Below, piece after piece: positions 20,543 through 38,866 of a stretch of 64,000 bases of DNA (positions are counted from its first letter, which is position 1; every line of letters starts with the position of its first letter). The notes under the pieces were generated by a model that was not told where the DNA came from, made no database searches, and saw only the letters and a program-made list of their open reading frames with translations. A program made the translations under genes and the position numbers. The DNA is taken from sequence record OM362897.1. One strand, 5' to 3'. The stretch comes from Escherichia phage SKA64.

Positions 20543-20911
20543 ATGAAGGTATTAAACTTTTACCATTTAGGCAAAACAATCCCAGAAGGTGCTGTTTATA
20601 TTGGTAGAGCAATGCCACACATGGGGCTAAAAGCCTCCAAGTTTGCAAACCCTTTTAAGTTAAAAGATGATGAACCACGAGGATCAACTATACAAAGGTA
20701 TAAAGAGTGGTTGTGGGAGCAAATTCGTTGTGGTAAGATCACTCTTGAAGATTTATTAGAGTTAGAAGGGAAAGATTTAGTTTGCTTCTGCTCACCTCAA
20801 CCTTGTCATGGAGATGTATTGGTAGCAGCCGTAGCTTGGGCTAGAAAAGAGTGGGACAAAAGGCATCCTACTTATGTAGACAATTATTGGATTTGGGAGG
20901 AGAATTTTTGA
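20543..20911 (+). CDS. DUF4326-like protein (122 aa)
   Basis: ORF track; CFCSPQPCHGDVL motif typical of a conserved phage family of unknown function. Confidence 0.45.
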   Translation: MKVLNFYHLGKTIPEGAVYIGRAMPHMGLKASKFANPFKLKDDEPRGSTIQRYKEWLWEQIRCGKITLEDLLELEGKDLVCFCSPQPCHGDVLVAAVAWARKEWDKRHPTYVDNYWIWEENF

Positions 20912-23392: not shown

Positions 23393-23644
23393 ATGGCGGG
23401 GTATCACATAACAGACATTAAGAAACAACCTTATGGCAGCATAGAAAAGATTAAAGAGGAAGTAGAAGAACTTTTTGATGCTGTTGAGCAGGATTGCAAA
23501 ATAATGCAACTTGTTGAATTGTCAGATATTATAGGTGCTGTCGAGGGAGTTTTAGAACAACAGTTCCCAGATATGACTTTACAAGATTTAATCATTATGT
23601 CCAACATTACTAAACGTGCGTTTCGCACAGGAGGAAGGTCATGA
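23393..23644 (+). CDS. small acidic protein, MazG-like candidate
   Basis: ORF track; EEVEELFDAVEQD resembles MazG-type EExxE motif; weak. Confidence 0.3.
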   Translation: MAGYHITDIKKQPYGSIEKIKEEVEELFDAVEQDCKIMQLVELSDIIGAVEGVLEQQFPDMTLQDLIIMSNITKRAFRTGGRS

Positions 23645-24198
23645 ATACAGGTGTGATTGCCGAAGCCATCCAGAGTTATGGACGCTTTGCTGAAATGTTA
23701 GATGTTCCTTATTTAGTGGATGCAGATATTTTGGCATTCACACTGCCACCTGGCAAAGAAGATGCTCCTTTGGGGCATCCTAATGGGAAGTTTTATGTTG
23801 CCAGTGCCGAGCAATCATTCTTGCAAATGGAAAAGGATGGCTACGAGTTTATCGCTGGTCATCCCTACATGGCCCTGACACCATGTTACCGCACAGAGGA
23901 AGTGTTGGATGATTTTCACTTCAACATCTTCTTGAAGCTGGAGTTGATTGAGTTCTATCCCAGCTTTGGTGAAGTGAAAGAGTATGCCGAAGAAATGCGA
24001 TACTTCTTCTGGACCTACTACAAAGTCCAAACAAGAATTGTAGAAACAGAAATAGGGCTTGACGTGGAAGACATGAATGGTTTAGAATTAGGGTCATTCG
24101 GAACAAGATTGTCCCCACAAGGTCATCCATATATTTATGCAACAGCCATAGCCGAACCTCGTGCATCTATGGCAATTAACAGGAGGAATCATGATTAA
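23641..24198 (+). CDS. hypothetical protein (185 aa)
   Basis: ORF track; GGAGGAAGG RBS. Confidence 0.6.
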   Translation: MNTGVIAEAIQSYGRFAEMLDVPYLVDADILAFTLPPGKEDAPLGHPNGKFYVASAEQSFLQMEKDGYEFIAGHPYMALTPCYRTEEVLDDFHFNIFLKLELIEFYPSFGEVKEYAEEMRYFFWTYYKVQTRIVETEIGLDVEDMNGLELGSFGTRLSPQGHPYIYATAIAEPRASMAINRRNHD

Positions 24199-25579
24199 TA
24201 AATTTGCCCGTAAACAGGAAGTTGCTGAAGCAGCACGTCGCGCTGGTGTGTATGACAAATTGTGTGAAGGTATTGTGAAGGTGTATGGCTGGGAGGGAGA
24301 AGATGATCCAACCTGTTCAGGTGATTTTGCAATGAACGATATGACCTTCCCATATATTTCCTACAATGCCTCCACTGGTGAAATAAACGGTGTAACCAGC
24401 ACCAGTGTTGATCGTTATCCAGACGCAGAACAAACCACAGGAGGTTACATGTTAGATCTGATTCTTAAGAAATCAGGGTTATTGGGAATCGAAGACGTTT
24501 TCGTAGATGCAGATAGTTTATCATTAGGAGATGTTGTTAAACTACTGGTAGACTTTAGATTTGCAACAGGTAAAAGCTTCTGGAAGCCAGAAGATGCTGA
24601 ACGTTTGAAGACAATCGATCCAAGTATGTATGAACTGCCACAATATAAAGATAAACAATTCCGCAAGGTTATCTTCTTTGATCGTCAAGCAGGCTTAGAT
24701 GCAATGCATATTGAAGTTGGGGATTTACCACGCCCACACTCTGCTGCTACTGGTGATCGCGGCCTTGTAGAAGTCACGGCTCAAGAATTTAAAAATATGT
24801 TTGCTGCGAAATACGATGAAGCTGCGCCTGTGCCAAGTATTGAGGAGCAAGAGGAAGAACAGTTTGTAGCGGAAGATACTGCATTTGAATATCTGCCGAA
24901 CACAGGTGTTATGCCTTCAGAAGATTTCGTGCAGGTTCGCTTCAACAATGGTCAAACAGATGTTGCTAAGGGAACAGTATTCACTTGGAATATCGACAAT
25001 CTGGAAGAGTGGGCGATTAAAGAATACTTCATTCTCCCGCGCACGGCAAAATACAACTATAATAATGGTGGACACCGCCCTTGTGGTGGTCACGTAGAAG
25101 TTCTCTTTCGTGACGGAACTACGGATAGTGGATCGGCTACGCATTTCACTTGGGGTCATGTTGGATATGATCGGGATATTGTTGGTTGGCTTCCAACTAA
25201 CAACCCTAAACCACGTTACCGTAAGCCTCGTAAGAAGCCTCCGGTAGGTAAGAAGAGTGTCGTTCGTGTCCTCTACACTACACAACAGACATACACATTT
25301 AAAAATGTGGTTGATGTGCAAGTAACCGAGGAGCGGGTTTATATTCAATATGATCGTGAAGTTACAGAGGGTATCAAAGAATCGGTTACTACCGAAATTG
25401 AAAATAAGCTTGTTATGGCTATCATTGTGGAAGAAAGTAAAGTAGAGAACGGTAAAGCCTATACTGTTCGTGATAGCTTCTTGCGTAATATCGATGGAAC
25501 TTGGGATTATAATGGACACGATGGGACCGCTGTAAAGAACGGTAAGATCATGGGAAGACAATTCCTCTCCAAACGATAA
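24191..25579 (+). CDS. hypothetical protein (462 aa)
   Basis: start set to ATG at 24191 after AGGAGGAATC. Confidence 0.6.
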   Translation: MINKFARKQEVAEAARRAGVYDKLCEGIVKVYGWEGEDDPTCSGDFAMNDMTFPYISYNASTGEINGVTSTSVDRYPDAEQTTGGYMLDLILKKSGLLGIEDVFVDADSLSLGDVVKLLVDFRFATGKSFWKPEDAERLKTIDPSMYELPQYKDKQFRKVIFFDRQAGLDAMHIEVGDLPRPHSAATGDRGLVEVTAQEFKNMFAAKYDEAAPVPSIEEQEEEQFVAEDTAFEYLPNTGVMPSEDFVQVRFNNGQTDVAKGTVFTWNIDNLEEWAIKEYFILPRTAKYNYNNGGHRPCGGHVEVLFRDGTTDSGSATHFTWGHVGYDRDIVGWLPTNNPKPRYRKPRKKPPVGKKSVVRVLYTTQQTYTFKNVVDVQVTEERVYIQYDREVTEGIKESVTTEIENKLVMAIIVEESKVENGKAYTVRDSFLRNIDGTWDYNGHDGTAVKNGKIMGRQFLSKR

Positions 25580-25585
25580 AACTTA

Positions 25586-25610
25586 AAGGCGCACTTTGCG
25601 CCTTTTTTGA
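25586..25610 (+). terminator. rho-independent terminator
   Basis: AAAGGCGCA-CTT-TGCGCCTTTTTTGA. Confidence 0.7.
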
Positions 25611-27974: not shown

Positions 27975-28166
27975 ATGGTTACATATTTTGCTGTAGGAGA
28001 TAGAGTAGGGACGGCAGGAGAACTTTTGAAGAACAGTGATCGGGACGTTAAGGACATTCTTGCAACCCTTGTGGATATTTTACAAAGAAAAGAGTTGCTT
28101 TCTGATCGAGATGTTGCTAAATTACTTGATATCGGAGGAGATGAACTTCAAAGACTTCCATTTTAA
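27975..28166 (+). CDS. hypothetical protein (63 aa)
   Basis: track ORF trimmed to ATG at 27975 after TTAGGAGG. Confidence 0.5.
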   Translation: MVTYFAVGDRVGTAGELLKNSDRDVKDILATLVDILQRKELLSDRDVAKLLDIGGDELQRLPF

Positions 28167-28181
28167 GTGAGGAGATAAGTA

Positions 28182-28787
28182 ATGCAACATAGTGTAGTAG
28201 TCAACATGCCGAATAGTGGGGATAAATCTTTTGGTGTCCCTGCTAAAAAAGTGTGGAAAGCCCATTTTCATCTTACTTTATCTAACGTTAGTTCTGAAGA
28301 GTTGATGAAAGCAGCTAAGATTATTGGTGCCAAATGCACAACAATTGATTTACATCGGGATACAAAGTCTCAACGTGATCGTATGTTAACAAAGTATCAA
28401 AGCGATCTCGACACTACTTTAATGTTGCAGTGTGTAGAAAAACTTGAGAATGCAGGTTTCAATGTTGTTCGTTACAAACTGGAACGAATGTTTAAACATG
28501 TTGCCTGTGTTCTTTTCATGGATCTAAGTAAAGAAAATTACGGAGAAGTTCACATTAAGACTTCAGCAAGTGATCCCGAAGTAGAAACAAACTTCTTCCG
28601 TATTTCTTCTAATGCTGAAGAAATTGATTACCGATTTTATAATGCTCGCTTATATTCCGCAGAAGATAAGTTGCGTTTCAATGAAGCGTATGATATGCTC
28701 TTGAACAGTGGGATACAGATAAAAGGCTACCACATAGAACAAGTGGTAGTGGACAGTAATCTTAACTTAGACGCATGGTGGGCTTAA
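28182..28787 (+). CDS. hypothetical protein (201 aa)
   Basis: ORF track; GAGGAGA RBS; single HLTL motif, no confident family. Confidence 0.55.
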   Translation: MQHSVVVNMPNSGDKSFGVPAKKVWKAHFHLTLSNVSSEELMKAAKIIGAKCTTIDLHRDTKSQRDRMLTKYQSDLDTTLMLQCVEKLENAGFNVVRYKLERMFKHVACVLFMDLSKENYGEVHIKTSASDPEVETNFFRISSNAEEIDYRFYNARLYSAEDKLRFNEAYDMLLNSGIQIKGYHIEQVVVDSNLNLDAWWA

Positions 28788-28788
28788 T

Positions 28789-29445
28789 ATGACTATTAAA
28801 CATATCTCTTTTGATGTATGGAACACACTGATCACAGCAAACTCCAATTACGCAGACATGCGAGCCTGGACTATCGCAAAATATGGAGATATTACGGAAG
28901 TTGAAGCAAGAGCAGCTTATAAAAAGATCAAAAAGGAACTGGATAATGCAGCACTTCAAGGCAAAGCCGAGTGTGCAGCATACGCCTGGGAAAGACTTGG
29001 TTCTGAACTTGGGATAACGCCTTGGAAGTCTGCAAAGCTTCGTTTCGAGTGTGAACAGTGGTTCCTTAAGTTTCCACCACACGTAGCCGTAGATCTGCCG
29101 ATGTACTTGCTGTATCTTTCTGGGCGTTATGATTTGAGTATTAAGAGCAATACCAACTTCATATCAGGGGATATTCTGCGTCGTGCTTGTAAGTTTGATA
29201 GTTGGAATTGTTTTGAGTTCACCCATTTCTCGGATGAAGCTTTACTTTGTAAACCAGATCCGCGATTCTTTGCTCGCACGCTCACGTATTCTCCGATCCC
29301 TCTGTTAGGGCACGAAGTGTTGCACGTAGGCGATAGTGAAGAATATGATGGAAAATGTGTTGACTTAGGGTTTAACTTCTGTCATATTAAGAACCCTAAC
29401 GACTTACTAGAGAAACTTAAAAGAGGAGAAATTGTAAATGCGTAA
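28789..29445 (+). CDS. HAD-superfamily hydrolase-like protein
   Basis: motif I FDVWNTL (dehalogenase-type DxYGT-like), motif IV VGDSEEYDG. Confidence 0.55.
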   Translation: MTIKHISFDVWNTLITANSNYADMRAWTIAKYGDITEVEARAAYKKIKKELDNAALQGKAECAAYAWERLGSELGITPWKSAKLRFECEQWFLKFPPHVAVDLPMYLLYLSGRYDLSIKSNTNFISGDILRRACKFDSWNCFEFTHFSDEALLCKPDPRFFARTLTYSPIPLLGHEVLHVGDSEEYDGKCVDLGFNFCHIKNPNDLLEKLKRGEIVNA

Positions 29446-30265
29446 TCAAACTCAAATTTTTGCAAATAAATTTGATGACCTGGAAACTGCTACTTTTGAT
29501 ATCCAAGATTATTCAAAATTGAAATTTGGTAGTAACCAAGCTGCGCGTCGTATGGGTAAAGAATTGGCACTTCAGTTTTTTGCTCAAGTGGCAATGAAAC
29601 ATATTGGGGAACAATTTGTTATCATTCCTTCTCCTTACAACCATGTGCATAATGCTGCAACAATGATGACAGATCATTTTATTAATTACTTCAATATGTT
29701 GCAAGCACAATATGATCAAGGTCGTTCAGCAGAACTGGACATTATTCATCGTAAAGTTAGCTATATCAACGATTATGGTTTCTTGGATAAAGCTAGTCGT
29801 AAGAAACTTATTGATGGGGATACATTCTACTGTAACAAAGAATTCTGGGGTGATAAGAAGCTTGTGTTTATTGATGATGTAAATATCACTGGAACTCATG
29901 AAGACAAACTGATTGAGATCCTTGATGAAAATCAAGTTAAAAATGATGTTTACTTCTTGTATTTTGCAAAATACGAAGGTAATCAAGCAGATACCGAAGC
30001 TAAACTGAATTTTAATTATATTAATACACCAGAAGCGTTTGTTAAAATGATTAATGAAGAACGTGATGCACAGTGTCTTGTTCGTCCTATTAAGTATCTT
30101 ATGGGCCAAAATCACGAAGACTTCAAAATCATTCTTAGCCAATTACCACACTACTATGTAGAGCAACTTTTCTTCGGATGTTTGGGAGAAGGTTACAACC
30201 GAATTTCAAAGTATGCCGAAAACTTTGAATTCTTGGATCGTTACACAAAACAACACATTCTGTAA
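29438..30265 (+). CDS. phosphoribosyltransferase (type I PRTase fold)
   Basis: PRPP-binding motif KKLVFIDDVNITGT. Confidence 0.6.
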   Translation: MRNQTQIFANKFDDLETATFDIQDYSKLKFGSNQAARRMGKELALQFFAQVAMKHIGEQFVIIPSPYNHVHNAATMMTDHFINYFNMLQAQYDQGRSAELDIIHRKVSYINDYGFLDKASRKKLIDGDTFYCNKEFWGDKKLVFIDDVNITGTHEDKLIEILDENQVKNDVYFLYFAKYEGNQADTEAKLNFNYINTPEAFVKMINEERDAQCLVRPIKYLMGQNHEDFKIILSQLPHYYVEQLFFGCLGEGYNRISKYAENFEFLDRYTKQHIL

Positions 30266-30278
30266 TAAGGAGCTAAAA

Positions 30279-30752
30279 ATGCTTAAAATGAAAACAGGTA
30301 ATCTTATTGATGCCGCTAAAGCAGGTGAAGTAACTGTTATTGCTCATTGTTGCAATTGTATGTGTAATATGGGGGCAGGTATTGCCCCACAAATCAAACG
30401 AGCATTTCCTTACGCATATGCAGCAGACTTAGACACAATGGCTGGTGATCAAAGTAAACTAGGTTGTTTTAGTTTAGGGGTGCCAGACGAACAATCAGAT
30501 CCTTTGGTATATAATCTATACGGGCAGTATCGTTATGGATACAATGCTAAAGGTCGTCAGTTGGACTATGATGCACTTTACGATGCACTAATAGCTATGG
30601 CTAACGATTTGCTTCTCCGTGACCAAAAATGTAAGATCGGCTTACCTATGATTGGCGCTGGATATGCTGGAGGTAATTGGGCTATCATCCAAGTGATGAT
30701 TGAAGAAACTTTAGTAAAAACAGGTCACGATGTGACTATTTATAAACTTTAA
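30279..30752 (+). CDS. macro-domain protein (ADP-ribose binding/processing)
   Basis: start at ATG 30279 after TAAGGAG; N-terminal segment NLIDAAKAGEVTVIAHCCNCMCNMGAGIAPQI and C-terminal LPMIGAGYAGGNW resemble macro-domain signatures. Confidence 0.5.
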   Translation: MLKMKTGNLIDAAKAGEVTVIAHCCNCMCNMGAGIAPQIKRAFPYAYAADLDTMAGDQSKLGCFSLGVPDEQSDPLVYNLYGQYRYGYNAKGRQLDYDALYDALIAMANDLLLRDQKCKIGLPMIGAGYAGGNWAIIQVMIEETLVKTGHDVTIYKL

Positions 30753-30764
30753 GAGGAGATTAGT

Positions 30765-30986
30765 ATGGGTGTTTTTGCAGGTATTGTTGCAGTGGTAAGC
30801 TTTTTTGTTATTGCTTTTATGCTTAGTTTGATTCCAGCTTGGTTACTGTTGCTGGCTTACAACTATGTTGCTGAAGTTATGGGTCATGCAGATATCACTG
30901 TCCCAGTAACCTTCTGGACCGTGGTTTGTGTTTCGTTTATTCTGGCTGTATTACGAGGAATCTTTTCCTCTCATTCAACAAAATAA
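30765..30986 (+). CDS. small membrane protein (73 aa)
   Basis: ORF track; GAGGAGA RBS; two hydrophobic helices. Confidence 0.6.
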   Translation: MGVFAGIVAVVSFFVIAFMLSLIPAWLLLLAYNYVAEVMGHADITVPVTFWTVVCVSFILAVLRGIFSSHSTK

Positions 30987-30989
30987 GTG

Positions 30990-31017
30990 TTGACATAGTT
31001 CTTAAAAAGAGTAAGAT
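30990..31017 (+). promoter_or_regulatory. sigma70-like promoter
   Basis: TTGACA-N16-TAAGAT. Confidence 0.6.
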
Positions 31018-31029
31018 ATATCACATGAA

Positions 31030-31048
31030 GCGGGGAATAGTTCCCCGC
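31030..31048 (+). promoter_or_regulatory. PeSL-like 5' leader stem-loop (only plus-strand copy)
   Basis: GCGGGGAA-TAG-TTCCCCGC between promoter and AGAGGAGAAAAG RBS. Confidence 0.55.
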
Positions 31049-31065
31049 AAAGAGAGGAGAAAAGA

Positions 31066-32040
31066 ATGCAACTTGGTTTCCCCATTATTGATGTAGTTGT
31101 TTTAGTTGGTATTTTAGCATTGTCTATTGGTATCGATTTCTTTGGTCACAAAGAAAATAAAGAAATTTCATTCAAATCCGCAGTTGATTGGTCGATCTTT
31201 TGGATTGGTGTATCATTAGCTTATTATGGTTTTGTATACTTCCAACATGGTGCCGATTTTGCTAACTTGTTTTTAAGTGGATATGTGTTGGAAAAATCTT
31301 TGTCGGTAGATAACTTAGTAGTATTTGTAGCAGTATTCGCAAGTTTTGGTATTAAAAGCACACACTTGCAGCACAAGATTCTACTTTGGGGTATTGCAGG
31401 TGCGATTGTCTTCCGAGGTGTGTTTGTAGCAGTAGGCACTTACTTGTTAAGTTTGGGCTGGTATGTTAATATCTTCTTCGGTGCGGTCATCCTTTTCTGT
31501 GCAGCTAAAATGGTATTTGCTGGAGATAATGACGCAGAAGTTGATTACTCTAAACACTGGGCTACCCGTATTGTTCGTAAACTGTTCCCTGTATCTAATA
31601 AAATGGATGGGGAGAAGTTCTTCACAATCGAAAATGGTGTTCGTGTAGCAACTCCAGCTTTGGTTTGCGTATTCGTGATGGAAATGGTGGATGTAATCTT
31701 TGCAGTAGATTCGGTTCCAGCGGTGATCGCAGTGACACAAGAACCCCTACTTGTATTCTCTTCGATGTTATGTGCAATCTTAGGTCTACGTGCTCTGTTC
31801 TTTGTTCTTAGTGTCGCACTGAAGTATCTGGTTCACTTGGAGAAAGCAGTTATTGTGGTTCTGGTGTTTGTAGGCGTTAAACTGATGTATCACCCGTTTG
31901 CAGAAACATTGCATGAGAAAATGAGTTTCCTGCCAGCACATATTGATCCAACTATTAGTATGTATATCGTGCTTGGTACTTTGGCCCTTGGTGTTATTGC
32001 AAGCTTTATCTTCCCTGAAAAAGAAGAAGCTACTATTTAA
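31066..32040 (+). CDS. TerC/Alx-family integral membrane protein
   Basis: multi-pass membrane protein; LSGYVLEKSLSVDNLVVFVAVF and FGAVILFCAAKMVFAGD blocks resemble TerC/Alx family. Confidence 0.8.
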   Translation: MQLGFPIIDVVVLVGILALSIGIDFFGHKENKEISFKSAVDWSIFWIGVSLAYYGFVYFQHGADFANLFLSGYVLEKSLSVDNLVVFVAVFASFGIKSTHLQHKILLWGIAGAIVFRGVFVAVGTYLLSLGWYVNIFFGAVILFCAAKMVFAGDNDAEVDYSKHWATRIVRKLFPVSNKMDGEKFFTIENGVRVATPALVCVFVMEMVDVIFAVDSVPAVIAVTQEPLLVFSSMLCAILGLRALFFVLSVALKYLVHLEKAVIVVLVFVGVKLMYHPFAETLHEKMSFLPAHIDPTISMYIVLGTLALGVIASFIFPEKEEATI

Positions 32041-32045
32041 TAAAT

Positions 32046-32070
32046 GAGCCTCCTTCGGGAGGCTATTTTA
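32046..32070 (+). terminator. rho-independent terminator
   Basis: AGCCTCC-TTCG-GGAGGCT followed by ATTTTAT. Confidence 0.65.
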
Positions 32071-32082
32071 TAGGAGAGACTT

Positions 32083-32433
32083 ATGAGTAATTTTGATGAA
32101 ATTCAAGAACTTGTTTGGGATTTATCTGGTGATGTGGATTACATTTCAGATTATCTTTCAAAAGTTTACCCTGGGGTAAGCGTTATGATTGTGACCAAAG
32201 ATCCAATTAGTTTGCCTCCCAATGTTGTAGCTTGTTGTGGAAGTGGTTCAGGAGAAGTAGAGCCTGTATCTCGTTGGGAATTAACTAAAGCTGTTTCAAA
32301 ACGAAACGGTGAAGTTTTGAATATTGATATTGAGCAAATATGGACTTCTCCAGCAGCCAAATGGAATGATCCAAATGGTTGGGATTTGTTCTTCTGGGAT
32401 AATGAGACTGATGATGAGGTGTTTTTAAAATGA
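32083..32433 (+). CDS. hypothetical protein (116 aa)
   Basis: ORF track; AGGAGAGA RBS. Confidence 0.6.
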   Translation: MSNFDEIQELVWDLSGDVDYISDYLSKVYPGVSVMIVTKDPISLPPNVVACCGSGSGEVEPVSRWELTKAVSKRNGEVLNIDIEQIWTSPAAKWNDPNGWDLFFWDNETDDEVFLK

Positions 32434-33665: not shown

Positions 33666-34256
33666 ATGCATACCGAGAGAGACTTGCAACTCTTGTGGTG
33701 GGAAGTGATGCAGGAAATAAAAGAAGATTTTCCTGTTTACTACAACATGTTACGTGAAGCAGGATATAAAGCTTGTGTTAGAAACAAAGTGAATAACTCT
33801 TTCGGTTGGTGCAACTACCGAGATAAAATTGTTGTTGTAAATTGGCACTTGCATAAGAACTCCACAAGAGATATGATCGTGGATACAATGAAGCACGAAA
33901 TTGCTCATGCTATTGATGGTTGTATGGGTAAGTTTAGTAGGCACGGTGCTCATTGGCAAAAACTGGCAGCAGAATTAGGGGCTAATCCTAAAGCCACTTC
34001 CAAAGAGCCGTTGAACCACGAATATAAATATGTTCTTGTTCTGGTAGATAGGTTTGCGACAAGATGTGTTAGAGGTTATAATCGTAAACCTAATCGCATG
34101 TACCCAGGTAAGCAACCTAATATGTGGTTGAAATCAGATAAAGAAGGGACCGAAGGAAAATTATGGTTGTATAAATGGGACGATTGGGTTAAAGTAGCTA
34201 AAGAGTACGGTGTTTCACCATATATAAGAGATGCAGAAGAGGAGAATGAAGAATGA
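33666..34256 (+). CDS. SprT-like zinc metalloprotease domain protein
   Basis: HExxH motif in MKHEIAHAIDG followed by HGAHW. Confidence 0.5.
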   Translation: MHTERDLQLLWWEVMQEIKEDFPVYYNMLREAGYKACVRNKVNNSFGWCNYRDKIVVVNWHLHKNSTRDMIVDTMKHEIAHAIDGCMGKFSRHGAHWQKLAAELGANPKATSKEPLNHEYKYVLVLVDRFATRCVRGYNRKPNRMYPGKQPNMWLKSDKEGTEGKLWLYKWDDWVKVAKEYGVSPYIRDAEEENEE

Positions 34257-35365
34257 CAAGTCCATTTTTAAAAGCAGCTACTGGTGGTCAGAAGAAGCCT
34301 GAAATGAGCGTATTTGCTGCAACAACAGATGCAAGTAAATCTGTATTCGCTCCAAGCGTGTTAGATGCCAGTCCTGTTTATGCACCAGCGGCACCGCAAG
34401 AAGTTCCAGTTTTGCCTTCTATGACCCGACAAGAGATTGAAGAGATTGGGGCAGAGGCAGGAACAACCTTGCGTTCCTTGAATGCCGAGGTGTTAAAACA
34501 TCAACGTAGTAATCAAGGCGATCAGATGAGTGAACGACTCACAGCTTTGATTAAACAGGCAAAACAACTTGATCCAAACTCTATTAAACAAAGCAAGGGT
34601 ATTACTAAACTCATTAAAAAAGTTATGGGTATGAAAGAAGACCTGTTCGGGGAGTTTGATAATGTTAATAACCGTATTGAAGAGTTGGTAAAGAACCTTC
34701 AAATGGATATTCGCAAAGAAGAAGATTCCTTGGTATATCTTGAAAAGCTACATCAAGCTATTGGACAATATGCTGCAAGTTTGAACCGAGATATGCAGCT
34801 TCTAACAGCAACCTATGAAAAAGAAGAACAAGCTTTGGCTGCTCTTCCAGAAGATGCAGTAGAACAGCGACAAGTGATCCGAGATACTTTGGATCTTCTG
34901 GAGATTCGTATTGCAGATTTAAAAGCATTGCGCCTACTGTGTGTCCAAATGGGACCGCGTGTACAAGGTATGCAAAAAGTTTCTGCAAGCTTAATGCGAT
35001 CTGCGCGTAACATAGTAAATAATGTTATTCCTGCTTACTCTGCTAACTTCTCAATGTATATCGAGAGCTTACGTCAAATGAAAGCAGCAGAGACGCAGAA
35101 TAACGTTCTTGATGAATTTAACCTGGCAATTAAACTGGGTAGCGATCTTGCCACACAGAATCAGATCGAAGCAGCAGCACTGGCTAACCGTCAAGTGTTG
35201 GATATTGAAACTCTGCGTCACGATCAGGAAAACTTGGTTAAGATGCTGGAAGAAACTAACCGCATCAATACGGAAGCCCGTGCTGCTCGTGTTGATTATA
35301 TTAATGAAGTTCAATCTCTGGAAGACGGGATGGTAGCTGCTGTGAAACGAGGGCTTGGTAAATGA
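34253..35365 (+). CDS. coiled-coil protein, TelA-like candidate
   Basis: 370 aa, largely helical with heptad-like repeats; assignment is contextual (sits in Ter-type cluster). Confidence 0.3.
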   Translation: MTSPFLKAATGGQKKPEMSVFAATTDASKSVFAPSVLDASPVYAPAAPQEVPVLPSMTRQEIEEIGAEAGTTLRSLNAEVLKHQRSNQGDQMSERLTALIKQAKQLDPNSIKQSKGITKLIKKVMGMKEDLFGEFDNVNNRIEELVKNLQMDIRKEEDSLVYLEKLHQAIGQYAASLNRDMQLLTATYEKEEQALAALPEDAVEQRQVIRDTLDLLEIRIADLKALRLLCVQMGPRVQGMQKVSASLMRSARNIVNNVIPAYSANFSMYIESLRQMKAAETQNNVLDEFNLAIKLGSDLATQNQIEAAALANRQVLDIETLRHDQENLVKMLEETNRINTEARAARVDYINEVQSLEDGMVAAVKRGLGK

Positions 35366-36958: not shown

Positions 36959-37753
36959 ATGTCCGAGAAAATCAGCCTGAAAAAACGTCAAGAAAACCTT
37001 GCTTTCTCTCTGAAAAAGAATAAGAACCTGAATGAAGGTAAGATTGTTCTTCGTGTAGCATGTGCTCTAGATATTTCTGGTAGTATGCATGGTCTATATT
37101 CTAGTGGGGTAGTGAGTGATTTTGTAGGTAAACTGCTTCCTTTTGGTATGTTGTTCGACGATAATCAACAAATTGATATGTGGGCCTTCAATACGAGTTC
37201 CCAAGAGCTTACTCCAGCAACAGCAGACGTTTACGACGACTATGTTGGTAAATGTATGCGTAATGTTCGTATCGGAGGTGGAACAAATTACGCCCCTGTA
37301 ATGGCAGATATCTACGATGAGTATTTTGGCACTGTTACCAAATATATTACCACTAAACAAGTGGTACAAGAGGAGGCTCCAAAGAAAGGCTTCTTTAATC
37401 GTCTGCTTGGTAAAACTGAAACAGTGTCTGTAGAGCGTGAAAAAGTTGTAGCTGTATCAGAACCAGGTGCTGACGTTACCCCTGGTGTTGTATTCTTCCA
37501 GACGGATGGTGAGAATGGTGATCCTAGTGCTGTTCGTCGTCTTATCGAAGAGAATAAGAATAAACCTATTTATTGGTTCATGGTTGGCGTTGGTAATGAG
37601 AAGTTTGGCTTCCTGAAAGAACTGGCAAATGCTTATGATAATGTTGGTTTTATTGGCATTAAAGATTTAGACTTGACAGATTCAGAGCTTTATGACAAAC
37701 TCTTATCTGAAGAGTTCGGAGAGTGGGTTGTTAAAGTAGGTGCTAAAAAATGA
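36959..37753 (+). CDS. von Willebrand factor A domain protein (TerY-like)
   Basis: MIDAS motif DISGSM; N-terminal ISLKK/FSLKK repeat shared with TerD gene. Confidence 0.7.
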   Translation: MSEKISLKKRQENLAFSLKKNKNLNEGKIVLRVACALDISGSMHGLYSSGVVSDFVGKLLPFGMLFDDNQQIDMWAFNTSSQELTPATADVYDDYVGKCMRNVRIGGGTNYAPVMADIYDEYFGTVTKYITTKQVVQEEAPKKGFFNRLLGKTETVSVEREKVVAVSEPGADVTPGVVFFQTDGENGDPSAVRRLIEENKNKPIYWFMVGVGNEKFGFLKELANAYDNVGFIGIKDLDLTDSELYDKLLSEEFGEWVVKVGAKK

Positions 37754-38263: not shown

Positions 38264-38866
38264 ATGACTGATAAAATTTCCCTGAAAAAAGGCTCTAGCG
38301 AAAAAATTTCCCTGAAGAAGGTTGCTCCGGCTCTGAAAGAACTGCGCCTGGAATTCTCTTGGAAGTCTGATTCTAAACTGGATCTGGATGTAAGTGCACT
38401 GGTTTGTCGTCACAATGCCGCTGGCAATCCTGAAATGCTGTCTGCACGTCATCTTGTTTGCTATGCTAACAAGTTTGATCCTGAACGTTCTACCTTCGCT
38501 GGTGACGATGTTCGTGATGGCACTGGCAGCATGGAGCAGATCGATATTACTCTGGCTAAAATCTCTCCTGATGCACAAGAGATTGCCTTTGTTCTGACCA
38601 TTGATGATGATACAGGTCTGAAACGTTTTGGTCATGCTTCTGAAGGTATGCTTAAAATCTTCGACTCCGAGCGCAATGTGGAAATTCTGGATTTTGACTT
38701 CCTGGCTCCTGAAGTAGCTGGCAACACAATCTGCCACGTGGCTTCCTTGGTTCGTGAAGATGGGGAATGGAAGCTGAAAGCATATGGTGTAGGCAAAGCT
38801 GGTCTGGATATTTGTGATGTGGTGATGGCCTTCGGTGGTAAAAAAGAATGGTATGAATGTCCATAA
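38264..38866 (+). CDS. TerD-domain protein
   Basis: ISLKKGSSEKISLKK...LDLDVSALVC N-terminus and GEWKLKAYGVGKAGL C-terminus resemble TerD family. Confidence 0.8.
   Translation: MTDKISLKKGSSEKISLKKVAPALKELRLEFSWKSDSKLDLDVSALVCRHNAAGNPEMLSARHLVCYANKFDPERSTFAGDDVRDGTGSMEQIDITLAKISPDAQEIAFVLTIDDDTGLKRFGHASEGMLKIFDSERNVEILDFDFLAPEVAGNTICHVASLVREDGEWKLKAYGVGKAGLDICDVVMAFGGKKEWYECP

Follow-up and report, generated by a model that had tools for sequence, protein, structure and literature searches.

The genome of Escherichia phage SKA64 (sequence record OM362897.1) raises the question of what, if anything, unites four consecutive genes located at positions 28182-30752 of the 64,000-nucleotide stretch analysed here (the window), upstream of a set of Ter genes. 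The initial annotation had described a module of a HAD hydrolase, a phosphoribosyltransferase (PRTase) and a macrodomain protein, preceded by a 201-amino acid (aa) protein of unknown function, and had suggested that the phage makes or modifies a nucleotide or an ADP-ribose (ADPR)-derived small molecule, possibly against NAD-depleting or signalling-based immunity. As judged by family membership, active-site conservation, gene order and linkage across lineages, from which the substrates, products and role of the proteins are inferred, we consider it moderately probable that three independent units make up the locus within an early or accessory transcription unit, namely a HAD-PRTase_3 pair, a macrodomain and the 201-aa protein (u201). 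The phage is a Phapecoctavirus. Over 28000-32100 it shares 99.1% identity with Escherichia phage tuntematon and 91-99% with about 70 further Phapecoctavirus records including phAPEC8. The gene calls used are those of two reference phage annotations, and for the four genes they are:

28182..28787, plus strand, 201-aa protein (u201) of an uncharacterised virus-rich family, with a GAGGAG Shine-Dalgarno sequence 5' of the ATG
28789..29445, plus strand, HAD-superfamily hydrolase of subfamily IA (HDHD3 / PH 2om6-like), 218 aa, identified by phrog_14393 'hydrolase' (3e-117) and by the family profile
29438..30265, plus strand, type I PRTase of the PRTase_3 ('ComF-like') family, 275 aa, identified by PF15610 (E 7.7e-42)
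30279..30752, plus strand, stand-alone macrodomain of the ALC1-like/SCO6735/Tk.4 class, 157 aa, identified by Pfam Macro, PDB 5e3b and T4 Tk.4

The HAD and PRTase_3 genes overlap by 8 nucleotides, with the HAD gene first. In every context read, the HAD gene lies directly 5' of the PRTase_3 gene and usually overlaps it. These contexts include Justusliebigvirus, the Xanthomonas jumbo phage XaC1, Rhizobium Kleczkowskaviridae, Brevundimonas jumbo phages, the metagenomic phage contigs L003, L005, L022 and L023, and megaplasmids of Sinorhizobium and Rhizobium. HAD-PRTase_3 is a conserved two-gene cassette, found in at least five phage lineages as well as on rhizobial megaplasmids. Within the flanks read, neither the macrodomain gene nor the 201-aa gene was found in any of the seven other HAD-PRTase_3 contexts outside Stephanstirmvirinae, and the nearest relatives of the macrodomain stand alone. 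The proposal that three or four of the consecutive genes act as one module was therefore not upheld, while the family assignments on which it was built were all confirmed by profile searches (PRTase_3, E 7.7e-42; the HAD structure 2om6, 7.6e-20; the macrodomain SCO6735, 9.4e-13), and the three motifs it had listed (FDVWNTL, GDSEEYDG and VFIDDVNITGT) were found where claimed.

The first two of these motifs occupy residues 8-14 and 181-188 of the 218-aa HAD protein. As a single sequence this protein scores 21.2 bits with Pfam, below the cut-off of 26.4, but a PDB search with a profile built from eight homologues hit 40 HAD structures, the best being 2om6 (7.6e-20), with HDHD3 (3k1z) at 3.4e-11. 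Among eight phage and plasmid homologues that are 28-50% identical, D9, V10, W11, N12 and T13 of motif I are invariant, as are S120 (motif II), K155 (motif III) and G181, D182 and D187 (motif IV). The fold similarity and motifs II (S/T), III (K) and IV (GDxxxD) are those of the HAD superfamily. Motif I departs from the DxDx(T/V) form, as the nucleophile D9 and T13 are kept while the Asp expected two residues past the nucleophile (Asp+2) is W11. The group of HDHD3, Pyrococcus PH 2om6 and PH0459 shares the fold and motifs II-IV, and 2om6 has the exact FDVWNTL motif I. To our knowledge no member of this group has an established substrate, so no function can be transferred from it to the phage HAD protein. 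The match to HAD nucleotidases of the YjjG type is weak (23 bits against a cut-off of 160).

The PRTase matches PRTase_3 (PF15610) over residues 11-266 of 275 with 143.9 bits, against a cut-off of 28.7. The motif VFIDDVNITGT, at residues 143-153, lies in a segment (L142-V-F-I-D146-D147-V-N-I-T151-G152-T153-H154) that has the hydrophobic strand, two acidic residues and T-G-x-T-type turn of a loop binding phosphoribosyl pyrophosphate (PRPP). Homologues fall into 241 protein clusters, all of which carry PF15610, and are present in 156 phage records, which have the HAD-PRTase_3 pair. Residues invariant among nine homologues that are 35-65% identical include K29-F30-G31, S65, N68, R105, D146-D147, T151-G152 and H154. 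Similarity to PDB structures is limited to the PRPP loop of HGPRT (E 0.47), and no NCBIfam equivalog was matched. PRPP-dependent ribosyl transfer is the activity predicted for this protein. Given that the motifs of both proteins are kept across 28-50% (HAD) and 35-65% (PRTase) identity, the conservation is what would be expected if both were active enzymes and selected jointly, with activity as a prediction. A tblastn search of the PRTase against 72,556 plasmids returned solely rhizobial homologues and none on enterobacterial ter plasmids, and a link to the PRTases of the latter was rejected on that ground. The possibility that HAD-PRTase represents NARP3 was also rejected, as NARP3 consists of PnuC and NadR.

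The position of the locus next to a Ter cluster, as described in the initial annotation, was borne out by four genes, all within 9 kb in the window:

31066..32040, plus strand, TerC-family integral membrane protein (PF03741, E 9.9e-39)
34253..35365, plus strand, TelA-like protein (PF05816, E 3.2e-33)
36959..37753, plus strand, vWA-TerF-like protein (PF10138, E 1.6e-37)
38264..38866, plus strand, TerD-domain protein (PF02342, E 3.2e-28)

The metagenomic contigs L003, L022 and L023, which represent three unrelated large phages, have a common gene order of TelA, vWA-TerF, a protein of about 425 aa, smaller open reading frames (ORFs), TerC, a 140-aa ORF, HAD, PRTase_3 and TerD, and their PRTases are 47-50% identical to that of phage SKA64. 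The pair sits between TerC and TerD in these phages and therefore lies inside the Ter operon there. At the genome level, TerD was detected in 148 of 50,697 phage records, and the breakdown by organism for TerD and PRTase_3 is 105 and 104 for Escherichia, 7 and 7 for Brevundimonas, 4 and 4 for Caulobacter, and 5 and 5 for records labelled Campylobacter, in addition to XaC1. The main exception to this co-occurrence is the Rhizobium phages. A neighbourhood of PRTase and HAD genes with TerC, TerD, TelA or vWA-TerF genes thus recurs across unrelated genomes, and the link of the pair to Ter is strong, though not obligatory, since cases exist in which Ter genes are not nearby or are far off.

In the classical Ter biosynthetic module, reportedly defined by Anantharaman, Iyer and Aravind in 2012, PRTase_2 and PF11202 occur with a HAD protein, and bacterial versions are said to add an ATP-grasp protein and a C-C lyase. 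That composition was not found in the window, which has one PRTase, belonging to PRTase_3; no ATP-grasp or lyase was identified by Pfam near the pair, where several neighbouring ORFs have no Pfam match. The module of Acinetobacter phage vB_AbaM_ME3 (ME3) differs similarly from that of phage SKA64, as ME3 and the classical form have PRTase_2 (PF15609), StiP/PF11202-PELOTA and a HAD protein that was not detected by the profiles used, whereas the SKA64 locus has a single PRTase_3 and a HAD protein of the DVWNT type. The likeness lies in a phage-borne PRTase and HAD protein linked to TerC, TerD, TelA and vWA-TerF, with the same predicted logic of ribosylation followed by phosphoester hydrolysis. 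The statement that Ter clusters are linked to PRTase/HAD modules predicted to make nucleoside-like metabolites agrees with published work. Ter systems have been linked to PRTases and HAD fold phosphoesterases with predicted nucleoside or nucleotide derivatives as products, and a fairly complete Ter system was noted in ME3 and "certain other related smaller tailed phages" (Iyer et al. 2021, PMC7824862); the nucleotide prediction for Ter-linked modules is also given in a 2017 paper on polyvalent proteins (PMC5512222). A nucleoside-like product of Ter-associated PRTase and HAD enzymes has hence already been predicted by others, and was noted for phages in 2021. The Phapecoctavirus pair is a different, smaller PRTase_3/HAD version of the Ter biosynthetic module, of a kind already alluded to in that literature.

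The HAD-PRTase_3 pair (28789-30265) would accordingly belong in function with the phage TerC, TelA, vWA-TerF and TerD genes. From the chemistry of its family, the type I PRTase would move 5-phosphoribosyl from PRPP onto a base-like acceptor to give a nucleotide, and the HAD protein would process this product, classically by removal of the 5'-phosphate, to a nucleoside-like small molecule. The Ter proteins, which are membrane-associated, may act with this molecule or sense it. Its use to a lytic phage could be protection of the infected cell, for example in superinfection exclusion or under envelope or metal stress. No identified nucleoside-like Ter product was found in the literature. HAD-PRTase_3 is the simplest phage version encountered, comprising two small soluble enzymes, and it occurs in a well-studied group of E. 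coli phages that includes members of the BASEL collection. A pair of the SKA64 type offers a tractable system in which to look for the Ter product and for the reason why Ter genes are present in lytic phages.

Further observations were made on the Ter operons. Those of L003 (3989-6561 and 11530-12468), L022 and L023 encode three kinds of conserved protein, with lengths of about 425 aa (present as tandem paralogues in L003), 144 aa and 300 aa; Pfam matched none of them, nor did tblastn find a counterpart in the window. Genes for RNA ligases are repeatedly found in the vicinity of HAD-PRTase_3 or Ter genes: L003 and L022 have an Rnl2-like gene 5' of TelA, L005 has Rnl1, XaC1 has an RNA ligase, and in the Brevundimonas phage Kabachok RtcB adjoins TerD. 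The ME3 protein ME3_286 (L028, 9142-10209) matches PF11202, which has the Pfam name 'Tellurite-like stress resistance cysteine protease StiP' and which we take to be the former 'PRTase_1' of the Ter module; no paper explaining the StiP name was found.

The ORF of the macrodomain, as called mechanically, starts at 30213. The real start is the ATG at 30279, with AAGGAG 7 nucleotides upstream, as in the two reference annotations. The protein scores 22.9 bits with Pfam Macro (PF01661), narrowly above the cut-off of 22. Its PDB matches are led by SCO6735 (5e3b, 9.4e-13), followed by BT1257, TARG1 (2.4e-6) and DarG (5m31, 2.9e-6), and DarG models match at 1e-8 (NCBIfam) and 4e-10 (PADLOC). It is homologous to T4 Tk.4, with 36% identity over 124 residues (E 7e-21), and belongs to the SCO6735 subtype, as H23, N26, Q83 and G128 correspond to H24, N27, Q85 and G128 of SCO6735. 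Homologues are present in 2,927 phage records, with tk.4 genes of T4-like phages among the tblastn matches. The nearest macrodomain outside the subfamily is that of GAP31 (Vequintavirinae), which is 48% identical and has no HAD, PRTase or Ter neighbours.

SCO6735 strips ADP-ribose from thymidine in single-stranded DNA via Gln85, Asn27 and Gly128, and not via the Lys/Asp pair of TARG1 and DarG (PMC9411070). The catalytic Lys and Asp of TARG1 and DarG are absent from the phage macrodomain too, for which SCO6735 is the best solved match, but the DNA-positioning Lys34 and Lys89 of SCO6735 are Ala and Gly in the phage protein. T4 needs tk.4 only on DarTG2 hosts, and Tk.4, named AdfM, has been proposed to act on DNA (HIDEN-SEQ, bioRxiv 10.1101/2025.11.20.689424). 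Like Tk.4/AdfM, the SKA64 protein consists of a macrodomain on its own, is about 155 aa long and has the 'GQ' and 'IGAG' motifs. The context differs, as the T4 gene has tk-vs-regB neighbours, and activity of the Phapecoctavirus protein against DarT2 is a prediction from homology. The most likely activity of the macrodomain is that of an AdfM-type ADP-ribosyl (DNA) glycohydrolase. It is more likely separate from the HAD-PRTase_3 pair than coupled to it, the latter being unlikely. As a separately mobile counter-defence enzyme, the product of 30279-30752 would strip the ADP-ribose set by DarT2-like toxins on thymidines of the phage DNA. Once the macrodomain is split from the pair, resistance to DarTG2-type defence is predicted for these therapeutic-candidate phages. 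In tuntematon (NC_052660), the Sir2-like protein gp208, encoded at 136756-137571 and outside the window, might generate ADP-ribosyl or O-acetyl-ADPR products that a macrodomain could process.

The 201-aa protein, correctly described earlier as lying 5' of the other three and as being of unknown function, had no Pfam or NCBIfam match. An exhaustive profile search placed it in a family of 257 clusters, and a second, word-indexed search, for which the alignment was widened, brought in few more. Predicted viral structures with the u201 fold are from phages and giant viruses. A profile search of the PDB gave noise only, and a search for bacterial or plasmid members matched only the NUDIX part of fusion proteins. 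Twelve polar residues are invariant in the family, and each repeat carries HxHxT or ExHxK on its first strand. Fusions to NUDIX, HD_4 or HTH_3 domains occur in part of the family. Neighbours in other phages include Acb1 with NADAR and the NARP2 genes, and in ME3 DHH and metallophosphoesterase genes. Neither Justusliebigvirus nor any of the other HAD-PRTase_3 loci read has the u201 gene, and the ME3 homologue (ME3_124) lies 80 kb from the ME3 Ter operon; u201 is therefore probably an independent accessory or counter-defence gene, outside the HAD-PRTase pair. The protein probably binds or cleaves a phosphorylated nucleotide, and the family is a lead to a possibly new counter-defence activity.

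Other identities were considered for u201. The PADLOC models PDLC02277 and PDLC02279 ('AbiEi') match all 34 of the u201 members tested (best 2.9e-35), and this label hints that u201 may be an antitoxin mimic. There is no match to a Pfam AbiEi family, no winged helix-turn-helix and no adjacent AbiEii gene at any locus read. Assignment as a CYTH/triphosphate-tunnel protein, which had been suggested by alternating charged strands, was rejected as no structural match was obtained. Assignment as a 2H phosphoesterase, from the H-x-T-like motifs, was rejected as the bilobed fold with two H-x-(T/S)-x motifs was not present.

Several points weigh against the reading of the locus as three independent units, or against the role given to each. 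The order HAD, PRTase, macrodomain, 73-aa membrane protein and terC is kept in both genera of Stephanstirmvirinae, Phapecoctavirus and Justusliebigvirus, with proteins that are 49-65% identical. In ME3, a macrodomain of the same broad class as that of SKA64 (BT1257 1e-7, SCO6735 3e-4) is two genes from the Ter operon and adjoins a NAD synthetase gene, and some functional coupling of macrodomain and Ter genes may exist. A Poa1p-like phage macrodomain, Adpp, is an ADPR-1''-phosphate phosphatase in NARP1 operons (bioRxiv 10.64898/2026.01.28.702374). With respect to the Ter link, no Ter genes were detected near the cassette in L005, in Rhizobium phages (L008) or in rhizobial plasmids (L012 and L013), and TerD is tens to hundreds of kb from the pair in XaC1 and the Brevundimonas phages. 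The equivalence of HAD-PRTase_3 to the classical or ME3 Ter module is drawn by analogy, and a literature search for PF15610/PRTase_3 returned no paper. Finally, the Trp at Asp+2 (D-V-W-N-T) is invariant in all eight HAD homologues and in PDB 2om6. In HAD phosphatases and mutases the Asp at this position serves as general acid/base, a role said to be described for the superfamily by Burroughs et al. in 2006, while dehalogenases, phosphonatases and P-type ATPases lack it. Since it is replaced by Trp, and since HDHD3, 2om6 and PH0459 are without an established substrate, dephosphorylation by the HAD protein is an assumption and the label 'phosphatase' may be wrong.

Alternative explanations of the locus differ mainly in how much they join. 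All four proteins could belong to a single pathway that makes or recycles an ADP-ribose- or NAD-derived molecule against NAD-depleting or ADPR-signalling immunity, as proposed in the initial annotation. The genes are adjacent and probably co-transcribed between 25585-25605 and 32047-32064, the gene order shared by the two Stephanstirmvirinae genera fits such a pathway, and relatives of u201 are fused to NUDIX. A weak hint of a NAD link is that Ter genes adjoin NAD/ADPR genes in Proteus phage Privateer, ME3, L017 and a Rhizobium phage (L008), the ME3 macrodomain being near the Ter operon. Privateer interleaves Prs-like and NAMPT-like genes, read as Adps- and Namat-like, with TerD genes (TerC-TerD-...-MazG-(Prs-like)-(NAMPT-like)-TerD). 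The ME3 order is NAD synthetase-x-macro-x-x-vWA-TerC-x-TerD-x-PRTase_2-HAD-StiP; L017 has NadM-NAMPT (the NARP2 genes)-...-u201 homologue-...-vWA_TerF-TerC within 6 kb; and in the Rhizobium phage HAD-PRTase_3 adjoins a gene annotated 'NMNAT/Nudix'. No direct support for a link to NAD-depleting immunity was found, as five NAD-synthesis queries (the Adps-like and Namat-like proteins of Privateer, NAMPT and NadM of L017, and the ME3 NAD synthetase) had no tblastn match at E<=0.1 in the window or the rest of the near-identical tuntematon genome, and membership of the macrodomain in NARP1-AP (Adps-Adpp-Namat) was rejected on the same evidence. Also against a single pathway are the seven contexts that lack the macrodomain and u201 genes, the overwhelmingly solo occurrence of macrodomain orthologues, the T4 one having an anti-DarTG2 genetic phenotype, and the fact that known nicotinamide PRTases are of the NAMPT/NadV-like TIM-barrel type and not type I (PMC9503650). 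Adjacency of the macrodomain is weak evidence, as macrodomains are present in about 40% of medium-sized phages (PMC9503650) and accessory genes cluster in phage genomes, so that a naive estimate of chance overstates its significance. A single pathway is thus considered improbable. Two bolder proposals may be set beside it, together doubtful but not negligible. In one, phage Ter modules are tied to an arms race over NAD+/ADP-ribose, the DVWNT HAD protein and PRTase_3 making or recycling a non-canonical ribosylated compound that would work with the macrodomain; the hints are that Ter genes recur with NAD genes (in Privateer, ME3, L017 and L008) and a macrodomain adjoins the Ter operon in two unrelated phages. 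In the other, the 201-aa family is a new viral enzyme class acting on a phosphorylated nucleotide or immune signal, because the HxHxT/ExHxK strands resemble an active site and because of the NUDIX/HD_4 fusions and the Acb1, NADAR, NARP2 and DHH neighbours.

The remaining alternatives concern single components. If the pair served plain nucleotide salvage, the PRTase would recycle free bases for phage DNA synthesis and the HAD protein would be a pool-balancing nucleotidase. The pair is downstream of nrdD/nrdG with no strong terminator between, some records name the PRTase 'putative orotate phosphoribosyltransferase', and nucleotide genes are near the pair elsewhere (dCD/dUTPase and Pribosyltran in L003, DHFR and PurA in L008). 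Salvage is nevertheless quite improbable, as there is no similarity to OPRT, HGPRT or APRT past the PRPP loop and no NCBIfam equivalog, a PRTase coupled to a hydrolase of its own product would be futile, and the pair has TerC and TerD on either side in three phages and forms an isolated cassette on rhizobial plasmids. For PRTase_3 as a non-catalytic, ComFC-like binder of nucleic acid or nucleotide, acting as a regulator with a functionally unrelated HAD protein, there are the Pfam family name 'ComF-like' and the discussion by Aravind and colleagues of non-catalytic or single-stranded DNA-related roles of mobile-element PRTases (PMC5512222). This is very improbable given that the PRPP-loop residues (DD, TG, T/H) and other polar residues are invariant at 35-65% identity, and a two-step reaction is favoured by the strict coupling, seen in each lineage, to the gene of a partner enzyme. 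Lastly, the macrodomain could be an ADPR-1''-phosphate phosphatase of the Adpp/Poa1p type, acting on a small molecule against RES-type NAD+ cleavage or on by-products of RNA repair. PHROG 335 and many records name the family 'phosphatase', Poa1p of yeast (6lfu) is a weak match (E 0.0019), and Vibrio phage Gary has an Adpp that overcomes aRES and uses ADPR-1P as substrate for dephosphorylation (bioRxiv 10.64898/2026.01.28.702374). Adpp of NARP1-AP is likewise a Poa1p-like phage macrodomain adjoining the gene of a PRPP-related enzyme, but it lies between Adps and Namat and works in NARP1 operons, whereas the SKA64 macrodomain adjoins a type I PRTase_3, with no Adps- or Namat-like match. The SCO6735 match is much stronger than that to Poa1p, identity to Tk.4/AdfM is 36%, and the Gln, Asn and Gly needed by SCO6735 for DNA de-ADP-ribosylation are kept, which makes the phosphatase an unlikely rival. 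Given the similarity to Tk.4 and SCO6735 and the lack of matches to the NAD-synthesis queries, the AdfM-like role is the best supported for the macrodomain.

The composite locus of three units is embedded in a longer series of genes on the plus strand, in the order nrdD, nrdG, a small ORF, the 201-aa ORF, HAD, PRTase, macrodomain, a 73-aa membrane protein and terC, followed by several unknowns, an SprT-like gene, telA, more unknowns, the vWA-TerF-like gene and terD. Additional features of the region, of which the promoter and terminator sites are consensus matches only, are:

25585..25605, plus strand, terminator-like hairpin upstream of nrdD, with a 9-bp stem, 5 GC pairs and a T-run
30765..30986, plus strand, 73-aa predicted membrane protein between the macrodomain gene and terC (phrog_16065)
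30990-31017, promoter-like site (TTGACA-16-TAAGAT) just 5' of terC
32047-32064, terminator-like hairpin 3' of terC

The 73-aa membrane protein has the same position in Justusliebigvirus, with 60% identity. Between the two hairpins no comparably strong terminator-like site was found, and the genes from nrdD to terC form a putative long transcription unit (nrdD, nrdG, small ORF, u201, HAD, PRTase, macrodomain, membrane protein and terC) with an internal promoter for terC.

The terC gene (31066-32040) shares 99% identity with the alleles of Mt1B1_P17 and BI-EHEC, and 95% with TerC of Justusliebigvirus. Identity to TerC of phAPEC8 and of most other Phapecoctavirus is only about 73%, whereas the genes on either side are about 99% identical across the genus. 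It therefore looks as if terC alone was recently replaced by an allelic swap. Further upstream, 20543-20911 encodes a DUF4326 protein (Pfam E 1e-21), which has the RefSeq name 'ribonucleotide reductase NrdA-like', and the phage contig with the u201-Acb1 pair encodes a distant homologue of it. The names 'histidyl tRNA synthetase' for 23641-24198 (185 aa) and 'ribonucleotide reductase' for 24161-25579 (472 aa) come from PHROG and RefSeq, and no Pfam, NCBIfam or PDB support was found for either; the 185-aa protein was also rejected as a HisZ-like partner of the PRTase, having no Pfam or PDB support. Several records labelled as Campylobacter, Acinetobacter or Pseudomonas phages are 79-100% identical in these genes to the E. 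coli phage group of SKA64, and their host labels look doubtful.

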